The notes beneath the pieces were generated by a model. That model made no database searches and was not told the origin of the DNA. It saw only the letters and a list, made by a program, of their open reading frames with translations. The translations under genes and the position numbers were made by a program. A DNA stretch of 64,000 bases from an uncultured Verrucomicrobiae bacterium (GTDB taxonomy: Bacteria > Verrucomicrobiota > Verrucomicrobiia > Chthoniobacterales > JAFAMB01): assembly GCA_963813025.1 (NCBI GenBank), contig CAWEXO010000013.1:192001-256000 (forward strand). The letters are read 5' to 3'. Shown piece after piece: positions 17,924 to 48,043 of the stretch (positions within the stretch are counted from its first letter, which is position 1; each line of letters begins with the position of its first letter).

Positions 17924-18139
17924 GAGCTTTCTTCTTAAGTTGGATCTTGGCTGCCGTCAATGAGAGGGCCTCGAATGTGTCCGATGGCAGCTGGCATCGT
18001 CCGTAGTCTGGTGGTCGCTCATTTCCAGGCGAAGCCCGCAGGTCAATACTTTCGAACGTGTCTTTCGTCCTTGTTCCGGGAGGGCGAAGATTCACCAGAT
18101 TTGATTGCGGTTACGCCGCATTTTGAAAGATCTTACAAG

Positions 18140-24994: not shown

Positions 24995-25078
24995 GCTACA
25001 GTGTCGCCGAGAGCGAGTTTCGTTGCAAGCCGGCTGAGCGACAAAGCATGCCGGTAAGGCGACGCCGGACGGCCAACC

Positions 25079-41202: not shown

Positions 41203-41352
41203 GGCGCGTAGCGCGCAGCATAAGCTTCCAGCTTGTCAGCTTTTGAACCGGCAGGAACGGTCTGTCGGACTCTGGAAATCGTAGGATGCCATCAAGCGTT
41301 TGGTCGCGCGAGCGCTAGAGATCGTCTCAGAATGCCGCACTGTCCGGTGGCG

Positions 41353-41455
41353 GTAGGGCGAAAATTTATTTGAGCCGGACGCTTGGTGAGCCACCCGTCC
41401 CAGATGGCTCCGCCTTCGCCAAGGCTGTGGCGGACACGTCAAACAAGTTCTCGCC
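41353..41455. repeat. REP-like repeat, family A, with nested CCGCCTTCGCCAAGGCTGTGGCGG module
   Basis: GTAGGGCGAAAATTTATTTGA...TCAAACAAGTTCTCGCC arms. Confidence 0.8.
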
Positions 41456-41620
41456 TGGCGCTCGTCCGGCAAGGCGGATCGCCCTATCGGGCTCAGGACA
41501 AAAGAGGCCTTGGGATATCCCTCCAACCTCTCTTCCGAACCATAGCTCGATTGCGCGCTCTACAGATTGCCCAAAGTCCGATAGACCCAGGAACCGGCGC
41601 TACCTGGAAGTCCGAAGCGT

Positions 41621-44928: not shown

Positions 44929-45543
44929 ATGTTTTTTCCGGCGTATCTGTTCGTCCTTGTTGCCATCGCGCATATCACCGGCCGCTTTCCTGCGGTTGAA
45001 ATGAGCGCACATCCGATTCTGTCGAAAGGAGAAGCAGTGATCGACGCTTCACCCACGCCGTGGCCGGGGCAGCGCTCGATGTTGTCGATTTACGTTGACC
45101 CGGACAATGACCAGGGTCAGCGAACGCTCGAAGTCCGCGGTAAACTTGATCGCGGTCTAAACAATCTGGAGGATCGAATTGTCGTCGTCGGAGTAGTCGA
45201 TCAGGACGTGGTCAGCGGGTCGGGAAGCATCATTATCTCGGCCGGATCCAAAGTCGTCGGTTTGGGGTTCTGCGATGCCGGCCGCGCCAGGATCGAGGCT
45301 CGAGGAAAATGGACTTTTTATGTCAGCGACCATCAGATTAGTTTGGAAGGTTCTCTCTGGGGCGCCGACCGCAAGGAAGGATTGTCCGGTATCGAGGTCG
45401 AGAACGGCATCGATCCAACCAGGGTCAAACAGGCCATTTGCCGGGATGGGATTTATGTGTACGTGCCCGAAGCAACCGAATTCGTCCTTCGCCTGAGCGG
45501 CAATATCTCCGTCCGGGATCTCGGGTCGGCCTTTGGCAAATAG
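44929..45543 (+). CDS. hypothetical protein, possibly TrbI/VirB10-like beta domain
   Basis: IISAGSKVVG, RARI, EGLSG, YVYVPEATEFVL reminiscent of VirB10 C-terminal domain. Confidence 0.45.
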   Translation: MFFPAYLFVLVAIAHITGRFPAVEMSAHPILSKGEAVIDASPTPWPGQRSMLSIYVDPDNDQGQRTLEVRGKLDRGLNNLEDRIVVVGVVDQDVVSGSGSIIISAGSKVVGLGFCDAGRARIEARGKWTFYVSDHQISLEGSLWGADRKEGLSGIEVENGIDPTRVKQAICRDGIYVYVPEATEFVLRLSGNISVRDLGSAFGK

Positions 45544-45669
45544 CAGGGTGGGGGAACCGAATGCAACTGAGACTGGTCGGTGCGTCGGACTTTGGAAGTC
45601 GCTGCAAGATGAAGGTGGATGACAATCTCGAAAATGTCTCTGGCTAGAAGTGTCTTTGGGCCTGTGCCG

Positions 45670-45819
45670 TTAGGGCGAAAATTCATTCGAGCATTAGCGA
45701 GAACTTGTTTGGGTCGTCTGGAGCGCGTGGCTGCCGCAGATTCCGGCTCGAACGAGTCTTCGCCGAAGGCTCCTCCTTCGCTAAAGCTTCGGCGGACACG
45801 TCAAATGAATTCTCGCCCT
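45670..45819. repeat. composite REP-like repeat, family A; IS110 target
   Basis: AGGGCGAAAATTCATTCGA...TCAAATGAATTCTCGCCCT arms; terminal AC of the usual CCTAC end lies after the IS at 47142. Confidence 0.85.
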
Positions 45820-45849
45820 TGTACCTTGCCCCACCAATTTTTTTTCCCT

Positions 45850-46065
45850 TTTAAAGCCGCCCGCAAGGGCGGAACTCTGGAGGTGAAGAACTTGGCCGAG
45901 GAGGGTGGAAAACTGCCTCGCCCAAAGGTCGGTAGAACCTGTCCGGTAGATTAGTCCACCCTTCCTCGTGCCGCACCTGCATAAGACCGTACCGTATCTT
46001 AGGCCGTTCCAAACAGGGTTGGAACATAAGCCGTGTTCACAAGGCTCTGTCAGCAGGCGCGCGCC
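45850..46065 (+). ncRNA. predicted IS110 bridge RNA (ends approximate)
   Basis: GNRA hairpin, then two stem-enclosed internal loops carrying CTCGCCC/CCGGTAG (target) and ACCGTATCTT/ACAAG (donor). Confidence 0.85.
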
Positions 46066-46113
46066 CAAGCGCTTCATCAAACAAAGAACCAATTCAACGC
46101 GAATTCCTGTCTG

Positions 46114-47124
46114 ATGAAAAAACGCTACTGCATGGGTATTGATATGGCAAAAGCAAGCTTTGACTTTTGCCTGCTCTCCAAGAATGGCACTCGCCTGTGG
46201 CGGGGAAAGTTCAGCAATGATGCGACCGGCATTGGAGCATTTTTAGCCCAACTCCAGGCCCGCTCTTGGCCGCTCTCCCAGATCCACTTCGCCCTGGAAG
46301 CCACCGGGGTCTACGGGAAGAGATTGATCGCCGCTCTGCACCAAGCAGGCTTGGCGGTCAGCGTGCTCAATCCCGCCCAAGTCAAATACTTTGCTTTCTC
46401 GGTCCTGCGCCGCACCAAAAATGATCGGGTTGATGCGGCCATCATTGCCCAGTTTTGTCTGGAGCGAAAACCACTGGCCACTCGGCCGCTGCGCCCCCTT
46501 GAGGAAGAATTCAAACTGCTGGTGCGGGAGCGCGAAAGCCGGGTTGGCGAGCTCATCCGGGAACAGAACCGGGTGAAAAAAGACCCTTACCCAATTGCGC
46601 TGCCCGAGCTTGTCAGCCAACAGCGTGGCCAACGACTCGCCCAGCTCAAGAAAGAAATCGCTCAGCTGGAGTCGGCCATCTTCGGCTTAGTCGCGGCTGA
46701 TCAGGCTTTAAGCCGCCAAAGCCAACTGCTGTGCTCTATTCCCGGCATTGCCCAGCTCACGGCCGCCAAGCTGCTGGCCGAGCTGGCCGGTAAAGAGTTC
46801 CAATCGGCTCGGCAGTTGGCGGCCTATGCTGGGCTGACTCCTTCTGAATTCCGTTCCGGTGTCTCGCTCTACGGCAAAACCACCCTGTGCAAAATCGGCA
46901 ACCCTTTCCTGCGCAAAGCACTCTATTTGCCGGCCGCCGTTGCTCGCCGCTGGTGTAAACCCATCCAGCAATGGGCCGCAGGTCTCGAGTCACGCAAGCT
47001 CCACTCCCTGGCTATCCGCGGTGCCGTCATGCGAAAACTCCTGCACATCGCCTTCGGTGTTCTCTCTCACCAACAACCCTACAATCCTAACCTGGCCCGC
47101 CATTCCTTAAAGCAATGCCCTTGA
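46114..47124 (+). CDS. IS110 family transposase/recombinase
   Basis: DEDD RuvC-like GID, LEATG, KNDRVDA; C-terminal SIPGI, AYAGLTP, SG, GNPFLRKALY. Confidence 0.96.
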   Translation: MKKRYCMGIDMAKASFDFCLLSKNGTRLWRGKFSNDATGIGAFLAQLQARSWPLSQIHFALEATGVYGKRLIAALHQAGLAVSVLNPAQVKYFAFSVLRRTKNDRVDAAIIAQFCLERKPLATRPLRPLEEEFKLLVRERESRVGELIREQNRVKKDPYPIALPELVSQQRGQRLAQLKKEIAQLESAIFGLVAADQALSRQSQLLCSIPGIAQLTAAKLLAELAGKEFQSARQLAAYAGLTPSEFRSGVSLYGKTTLCKIGNPFLRKALYLPAAVARRWCKPIQQWAAGLESRKLHSLAIRGAVMRKLLHIAFGVLSHQQPYNPNLARHSLKQCP

Positions 47125-47999
47125 CATCCAAGACCGTATCTACCGGCGCGGAGTCGTTTAAGCTTACCGCTTTATGCGCTGGCATCGGCTTTTGGTTATT
47201 TACTGCCGGACTGACGTCCGCGCAGTGGCAGCCACCGGCCGATCTGAAAAGTGTGCCGGTGCGACAGGACTGCGCGCGAACGCATAACGGAATCGGACTG
47301 TCAATTCAGCCCTCAGTGCTCTACCCCAACGGAGTCATTTTCTTGTGCCCGGAGAGAGCACAAGCAATTGATCGGGAACGCCCGGGTGCATCCTACTTTT
47401 TCCGGGTGCACGAATACGGTCATCTGGCGCTCCATACGCGGAGCGAGCCGGCGGCCGATACCTGGGCGGCTGAACAGCTGAGCCGCACTAAGGCGGGTCG
47501 CGCAATCATCAAGGAAGCGGCGCTCCACTTTGTCGATGAGGTTGACAGGTTCGATCCCAGGTATGGAACCGGCCTGGACCGAGCTCTCCGGATCTCGGTT
47601 GCCGGGCGAATTCCGCGGCAAGAATGGCCTAAACGCGTCAGCGATTATAGCAGGGTAGTAGCCGACGCGATCAAGCAAGGCAGAATCGTTCGTCTTCAGC
47701 TCAAGTCCGGATATGCTGACTCAGCAGAGATGATCGTGACGCTTGACCATCAGCCGCTTGGGTTCCTGTCAAACCGATCAGGGCTGGTGCCACTCACCAT
47801 TCCGCCGCTTGTGCCGGGCCACCACAACATGGAGTTCTCGGATGTCTGGCTTTACCACGCGGAACAGGGTGGGGGTCGAACAGAAGTTGCCCGCAACCTC
47901 AGCGCAATTGCTCACTTCGATGGCGGTACAGCCACAACGCTGCTCGTGCAGTTGGATTTCGACGGCCAGAAGCTAGCCGTAACCGCATCCGCACTATAG
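47115..47999 (+). CDS. exported protein with HExxH motif; start codon lies inside the IS end
   Basis: Signal-like segment, FFRVHEYGH, E..AD.WA zincin-like pattern. Confidence 0.65.
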   Translation: MPLTSKTVSTGAESFKLTALCAGIGFWLFTAGLTSAQWQPPADLKSVPVRQDCARTHNGIGLSIQPSVLYPNGVIFLCPERAQAIDRERPGASYFFRVHEYGHLALHTRSEPAADTWAAEQLSRTKAGRAIIKEAALHFVDEVDRFDPRYGTGLDRALRISVAGRIPRQEWPKRVSDYSRVVADAIKQGRIVRLQLKSGYADSAEMIVTLDHQPLGFLSNRSGLVPLTIPPLVPGHHNMEFSDVWLYHAEQGGGRTEVARNLSAIAHFDGGTATTLLVQLDFDGQKLAVTASAL

Positions 48000-48043
48000 A
48001 GTCGCTTCGGTTTGCTCAATCGTTGTATCGACAGAATTCCCTT

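Follow-up and report, generated by a model that had tools for sequence, protein, structure and literature searches.

The element at positions 45820-47141 of the window, by which we mean the whole stretch of 64,000 nucleotides that was analyzed, is with a probability of about 90% an IS110-group insertion sequence of the IS621 type whose left end encodes a two-loop bridge RNA. Its anatomy, its homology, an insertion site that is uniform in all copies, and covariation both between guides and flanks and within the stems are shown directly. The features on which the argument rests are the following.

45812..45817, plus strand: left target half (LT) CTCGCC, part of the host repeat; xTCGCC precedes CT in 11 of 12 insertions, the exception (L006) reading TCGCT
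45818..45819, plus strand: left copy of the CT core, read from the sequence
45820..47141, plus strand: insertion sequence of 1,322 bp, including the right-hand CT as core copy; its ends are shared by seven copies that are 99-100% identical
45822..45827, plus strand: TACCTT, candidate -10 element that would be completed only in the circle; a weak match
45857..45872, plus strand: 5' hairpin CCGCCC-GCAA-GGGCGG, with 6 pairs that are invariant in 24 relatives
45892..45973, plus strand: target-binding loop, with closing stem 45892-45908/45956-45973 and inner hairpin 45927-30/45935-39
45917..45923, plus strand: left target guide (LTG) CUCGCCC, equal in sequence and sense to the left flank 45812-18, which comprises LT and the first core base
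45943..45949, plus strand: right target guide (RTG) CCGGUAG, reverse complement of core plus RT (CTACCGG, 47140-46)
45950..45951, plus strand: AU following the RTG, candidate handshake guide for donor AT (2/2 fit)
45976..46057, plus strand: donor-binding loop, with closing stem CCUGC/GCAGG (45976-80/46053-57) and inner hairpin GUUCCAA/UUGGAAC (46006-12/46019-25)
45991..46000, plus strand: left donor guide (LDG) ACCGUAUCUU, in the same sense as right end, core and first left-end base
46035..46043, plus strand: right donor guide (RDG) GU-uc-ACAAG, split, pairing with donor CTTGTAC in an IS621-like pattern
46114..47124, plus strand: recombinase gene, 336 aa plus stop, with PF01548, PF02371 and homology to the IS621 transposase
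47121..47126, plus strand: TTGACA, candidate -35 element within the right end of 15 nt, where it overlaps the stop codon; its function is suggested by IS621
47133..47141, plus strand: left donor half ACCGTAT and right copy of the CT core, read from the sequence
47142..47146, plus strand: right target half (RT) ACCGG, part of the host repeat, following CT in 11 of 11 readable right junctions

The predicted product of the gene at 46114-47124 is an IS110-family DEDD/serine recombinase, homologous to IS621 along its whole length. Both Pfam domains score above the cut-off (PF01548 at 1e-31, PF02371 at 5.9e-22), residues 5-325 align with the solved IS621 transposase (8wt6) with an E value of 3.2e-46, and comparison with the solved ISCro4 transposase (9t56) gives 4.5e-44. 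In the alignment, residues D10, E62, D104, D107 and S248 stand opposite D11, E60, D102, D105 and S241, the catalytic residues of IS621 (Hiraizumi et al. 2024, PMC11208158). The ATG start is common to the relatives.

In the window copy the left junction reads CTCGCC-CT-TGTACC, with the core at 45818-19, and the right junction ACCGTAT-CT-ACCGG, with the core at 47140-41. The dinucleotide CT is the sole sequence common to both junctions and the empty site (TCGCC-CT-ACCGG). The left end is long and non-coding (45820-46113, 294 nt), whereas the right end is short, comprising 15 nt plus the core. Insertion is scarless: comparing the empty site TCGCC-CT-ACCGG, of which there are 95 copies, with the occupied site TCGCC-CT-[IS]-CT-ACCGG, the target duplication amounts to the core only.

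The host genome (4.42 Mb in 16 contigs, 80% complete) carries seven full copies at 99-100% identity and one copy with an internal deletion of ~79 bp. It also carries a second subfamily, ~90% identical in the left end, which is represented only by internally deleted forms (1,010, 1,011 and 630 bp) and a truncated one. Among the 12 elements, the left junctions read xTCGCC-CT in 11 and TCGCT-CT in one, and the readable right junctions are CT-ACCGG in 11 of 11. Insertion of other copies at unrelated sites had been named as an outcome that would speak against the bridge RNA; instead, the copies share one site, with 12/12 left and 11/11 right junctions in xTCGC(C/T)-CT-ACCGG. The empty 12-mer TCGCCCTACCGG occurs 95 times in the genome, compared with 0.99 occurrences expected from base composition, and lies within a conserved stretch of ~50 nt, GGCTCGAATAAATTTTCGCCCTACCGGc.CaGG, often found as inverted pairs ~117 bp apart. 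Considering that the junctions fall in one repeat of which 95 empty 12-mers are present, the element targets a REP-like dispersed repeat, as do IS621 and other IS110 members (PMC11208160).

The window itself holds five one-mismatch copies of the 12-nt target motif, compared with 0.32 expected, at 45667-45678 (minus strand), 41350-41361 (minus), 41479-41490 (plus), 25051-25062 (minus) and 18076-18087 (minus). One of them lies inverted ~140 bp to the left of the insertion and another pair is ~130 bp apart, a spacing that agrees with the genome-wide layout of the target repeat as inverted pairs.

The initial annotation had described four guides in the left end of the window copy. All four strings are present by direct reading at the coordinates claimed for them, with positions recomputed by script, and their order and strand sense are as described for IS621. 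The LTG equals the left flank 45812-18 as had been claimed; the agreement stops at the first core base, and the guide has no match to the second. On the donor side, ACCGTATCTT at 45991-46000 equals the right end ACCGTAT plus CT (47133-41) followed by the first left-end base (45820), so that the LDG matches at 10/10 positions. The right donor guide had been given as ACAAG, and this string (46039-43) is indeed the reverse complement of CTTGT (45818-22), but the full guide is longer: it consists of GU (46035-36) and ACAAG with two bases skipped between them, and covers the seven donor bases CTTGTAC. The RDG of IS621 is likewise split, with nine RNA bases on seven donor bases (PMC11208160, PMC11208158).

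To estimate how often such matches arise by chance, we used 20,000 dinucleotide-preserving shuffles of 45850-46065. The two target 7-mers appeared in 518 and 607 shuffles, respectively, and both at once in 11; the donor 5-mer appeared in 4,735 and the donor 10-mer in none. All four guide strings together were found in 0 of 20,000. Among 2,490 other 216-nt stretches of the window, taken on both strands, none had both target 7-mers and none had the 10-mer.

The first base of the LTG, C, fits 12 of the 95 empty sites, 75 of which have T, and C stands at this position in just 3 of 8 insertions of the first subfamily. An enrichment for C sites (3/8 insertions against 12/95 empty sites) was considered and rejected, the insertions being too few and two of the three having an identical 25-nt left flank.

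Bases adjoining the RTG and the RDG can act as handshake guides, a concept described for IS621 (PMC11208158). In the target loop, bases 45943-51, which include the candidate handshake guide AU, are complementary to the right junction 47138-46 at 9/9 positions. In the donor loop, the handshake bases are GC against target CC, where just the G fits (1/2).

The ends of the element may also form a promoter when joined. Among 62 right ends from relatives, 61 have TTGAC at a constant offset, and joining the ends would put TTGACA 17 nt before TACCTT. IS621 has such a junction promoter across the circle ends, with the -35 element in the right end (PMC11208160). Because TACCTT is a weak match and a sigma-70-type consensus scan of the linear stretch 45700-47250 found no promoter or terminator, the junction promoter is a step that we infer.

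Four derivatives that lack part of the element (L010, C15:~123618-124628; L011, C9:~218160-219171; L012, C12:~154617-155247; L008, C8:36967-38210) measure 1,010, 1,011, 630 and 1,243 bp, respectively, and in each of them the bridge RNA region is complete and neither end is lost. With 99.4% identity to each other and a broken recombinase frame, the 1,010- and 1,011-bp copies occupy two different sites. Since they are so alike at different sites, they were probably mobilized in trans after the deletion, presumably by the recombinase of another copy. The LTG of the second subfamily begins with U, which forms a standard pair at 75 of the 95 empty sites and a wobble pair at 12 more, whereas the C of the autonomous element fits 12. 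The second subfamily might be a guide-RNA hitchhiker that borrows the recombinase of the autonomous subfamily and loads its own RNA, an idea we consider rather unlikely. If it were true, the hitchhikers would be parasites of a parasite, competing at the guide level, and would give a hint of RNA acting preferentially on the circle that made it.

These copies also bear on the alternative that survives best, which accepts the kind of element but holds that it is now immobile: the agreement between guides and sites would then date from earlier insertions, and either this copy or its entire subfamily would be inert, e.g. through a disabling substitution in the recombinase or a failure of integrated copies to produce the RNA. 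Such a state would fit the lack of a promoter in the consensus scan of the linear sequence and the mismatch of the first LTG base to most available sites, and no RNA run is among the sequencing runs listed for the element. The assembly has 0 matches to the circle junction, although such junctions are not expected in assemblies. The contigs of three DNA runs contain just short element fragments with no informative joint, and uncovered parts carry no information. Inert elements are also difficult to reconcile with seven copies at 99.2-100% identity whose frames are uninterrupted, with the retention of the catalytic residues and with four intact guides in the window copy. In addition, the transposase-deleted derivatives, 99.4% alike at two sites, indicate recent mobilization. 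We regard immobility as improbable, and the insertion sequence as apparently active.

The RNA reading of the left end was evaluated by its fold. When folded on its own, the sequence takes the two-loop shape (-85.6 kcal/mol; z -2.88; 1 of 200 shuffles as good), and RNAalifold independently recovers the two-loop architecture. The stems proposed initially are present: the 5' hairpin CCGCCC/GGGCGG at 45857-62/45867-72, the stem CCTGC/GCAGG, proposed initially by sequence only, at 45976-80/46053-57 and the inner hairpin GTTCCAA/TTGGAAC at 46006-12/46019-25. The stem of the first loop, claimed at 45897-909/45955-68, is present as well, but its extent had to be corrected to ~45892-45908 with 45956-45973. 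The bridge RNA would be about 200 nt long, running roughly from 45856 to 46060-46075.

Conservation of the fold was examined in 24 distinct sequences using a hand-set structure of 43 pairs in which the guides were kept unpaired. Standard pairs make up 95.7% of the cells, compared with 38-52% after displacement of the partners by 1-3 columns. Both-side, compensatory changes are seen in 14 of the 43 pairs, against 4.1 +/- 1.5 in shuffles, and 0 of 500 shuffles reach 14. They comprise 6 of the 16 pairs in the target-loop closing stem, 2 of 6 in the donor-loop closing stem and 6 of 7 in the donor-loop inner hairpin. Because the 5' hairpin is invariant in the 24 relatives, covariation says nothing either way about it. 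A scan of 45000-48000 with Rfam 15 at E up to 1 gave no match, hence no curated model backs the bridge RNA. In rows of a supplementary alignment (PMC11208160), compared by eye, the motifs CCTGT...TAGAT and ACAAGG recur, and the donor ends look nearly the same as those of IS621.

Relatives were collected by scanning one genome per species, which gave 22 loci, and metagenomes, which gave 52 more, mostly at 71-79% protein identity. The closest loci come from Verrucomicrobiae, Verrucomicrobiota and Chthoniobacterales. In a phylum-wide protein search, 2 of 400 sampled genomes, the own genome aside, match at E <= 1e-30; both matches (33-39% identity) were left out as distant.

The RTG could be compared with the right flank in 47 elements from the own genome, other genomes and soil metagenomes, which together have 13 distinct 7-mers. 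The guide matches its own flank at 7/7 positions in 39 elements, 6/7 in 3, 5/7 in 4 and 4/7 in 1. Taking one representative per RTG, 61 of 65 non-core positions are matched, compared with a permuted mean of 35.1, and 0 of 100,000 permutations reach this value; as the relatives are kin, permutation figures here and for the LTG overstate independence, but the individual guide switches are still plain. Examples of guide and flank are CCGGUAG/CTACCGG in the window element, ACGGUAG/CTACCGT, CCCGGAG/CTCCGGG, CACAAAG/CTTTGTG, CUUGUAG/CTACAAG and CCCGAAG/CTTCGGG. The exceptions are the L021 group, at sites with 2 mismatches, and L069, with just 4/7.

For the LTG, a fixed register gives 55 of 105 matched positions against a permuted mean of 46.1, with 2,052 of 100,000 permutations as high, a weak result that is attributable to the loop 3' of the guide, which varies in length by a base and mis-registers several lineages. 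The fixed register was replaced by a register-free measure, the longest exact match ending at the core, applied to 49 elements with 15 distinct guide regions. Here, the cognate mean is 6.3 nt, compared with 3.8 nt for non-cognate combinations. The guide switches comprise TCGCC-C, TCGCCG-C, GCGC-CT, AGTCC-C and TCGCAACC-C.

In the RDG, the seventh donor base is paired by G when it is C and by A when it is T. It is C in 43 elements, 40 of which have GU, and T in 9, where AU is found in 9/9; the exceptions L054, L055 and L083 have non-conforming strings and are possibly mis-anchored. The LDG is almost invariant in the clade, so its covariation is hardly tested. In the Rhodanobacter relatives (35% identity), compared by eye, the right donor half is TAGGT with guide ACCUAAGG, and the left target GCGCTC-CT is matched by GCGCUCCU. 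Across the relatives, RTG, LTG and RDG thus covary with the flanks or the donor. The interpretation as an IS110 bridge RNA given in the initial annotation is supported by the adjoining IS621-homologous gene, the compensatory stem changes, the copies at a single site and the guide-matched relatives.

The remaining alternative is that the left end functions as an mRNA leader or at the DNA level, its repeats being protein-binding sites or serving translational control of the recombinase gene. In its favor, the left end lies directly upstream of the gene with no terminator between, and the listed runs include no RNA run. We nevertheless consider it very improbable: the both-side stem changes that retain pairing argue that an RNA fold is under selection, and the RNA-DNA pairing of IS621 is mirrored by the split RDG and by the strand asymmetry of the guides. 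Moreover, the guides vary together with the sequences flanking unrelated host sites, a behavior not expected of a fixed protein-binding site, and the recombinase is homologous to that of IS621, shown to need RNA.

Several further observations were made among the relatives. The RTG substitution GGUAG to GCUAG, a mismatch at the second base past the core, is found in three separate lineages (L011; L021-L023 with L027; and L057), one of which has at least four copies at different sites. In one lineage (L024, L028, L054 and L083), the match between left flank and first loop runs over 12 nt (ACTGTTTCGCCC), into bases that are conserved scaffold elsewhere; this is either a longer guide or a coincidence with the host repeat. 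L029 (52% identical) has a canonical right junction with a 7/7 match to its guide, but its left junction (L029:2180-2245) has neither CT nor the expected left-end start and is irreconcilable with the guides; L084, a close relative of L029, has a canonical left junction.

For the bridge RNA element, we propose the following course of events, in which excision, reading of the junction and strand exchange most likely proceed as in IS621, given the homology. The element would excise as a circle, joining ACCGTAT-CT to TGTACC. Expression would probably be highest from this circle, where TTGACA and TACCTT would form the promoter. The first loop of the bridge RNA would read TCGCC-CT-ACCGG in the repeat, with the RTG CCGGUAG pairing with the top strand from the core rightwards, and the second loop, using the LDG ACCGUAUCU and the split RDG GU..ACAAG, would do likewise at the junction where right and left end meet in the circle. 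Both loops would be held by a recombinase tetramer of the DEDD/serine type, which would cut next to the CT cores and exchange strands there, so that the element would land without a scar at TCGCC-CT-ACCGG, within the REP-like repeat of which the genome has about a hundred copies. Production of the bridge RNA, its binding by the protein and its guidance of the reaction are thus expected by analogy with IS621, and it is by the same analogy that we infer the recombinase to be intact and RNA-guided, the two terms used in the initial annotation.

The mechanism is the published mechanism of IS621 (Durrant et al. 2024, Hiraizumi et al. 2024) and is not new. IS621 from E. coli (Durrant et al. 2024, PMC11208160; Hiraizumi et al. 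2024, PMC11208158) is a like element, with the same two recombinase domains and end-to-end homology. Both have the RNA, which is predicted in the window element, in a long left end and a very short right end, a 5' hairpin followed by two internal loops, a CT core, a split RDG and a repeated extragenic target; the candidate -35 element of the window element lies in the right end, as does that of IS621. The window element differs from IS621 in its host, a Verrucomicrobiae bacterium, and in its target, a different repeat with TCGCC-CT-ACCGG. Its RTG has 7 nt compared with 4 in IS621, its LTG is a 7-nt match ending at the first core base compared with A50-U58, and its RNA, as estimated from sequence alone, is about 200 nt long compared with 177; unlike in IS621, one of two bases fits in the donor-loop handshake.

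Bridge RNAs have been predicted for 85.7% of IS110-group elements (Durrant et al. 2024, PMC11208160). ISPpu9 and ISPpu10 of Pseudomonas putida (PMC12288879; bioRxiv 10.64898/2026.03.19.712850) are likewise multi-copy IS110-family elements, all in one repeated intergenic sequence, and, as far as their published description allows a comparison, differ from the window element in host, repeat and guides. The IS1111 group (seekRNA or right-end bridge RNA; PMC11208160) has the same recombinase family and guide logic, but its RNA lies in the right end and it has long sub-terminal inverted repeats, in contrast to the left-end RNA and 15-nt right end of the window element. The donor and target strings of the present lineage were not found in the examined supplementary text of Durrant et al. 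(PMC11208160), which is partial and hence gives no proof of absence. Among the papers searched, none mentions bridge RNA together with verrucomicrobial bacteria.

The element adds a natural orthologue, documented in detail and equipped with an RTG of 7 nt, from a phylum that has been sampled poorly. Its tight clade, at 71-79% protein identity, displays at least 13 target programmes on an almost unchanged scaffold; it can be considered a natural reprogramming series and could aid the choice or engineering of bridge recombinases.

The own genome, moreover, usefully illustrates how one repeat can serve several IS110 families as landing site. It is unusually IS110-rich, with 40 matches to the IS110 DEDD domain, among which frame length distinguishes at least four copy groups. 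On contig 9, one copy of the element (L102, C9:66900-69350) is split by ~1.45 kb of foreign DNA with two overlapping same-strand frames of 119 and 345 aa, an arrangement that resembles an IS3-type element inserted into this copy. The dispersed repeat targeted by the bridge RNA element also harbors a second IS110 family, unrelated to the first and inserted a few bases leftward of the element core; two IS110 families therefore use one repeat as landing site. In the 10 copies compared (C13:93100-93576, C4:3203-3679, C5:142449-142925 and 7 more), the junctions of the second family read ...AAATTTTCG/TATAGCA...ATACTG/CCCTACCGG, where slashes mark the boundaries, with TTTTCG on the left side, and they appear to have the single base G in common.
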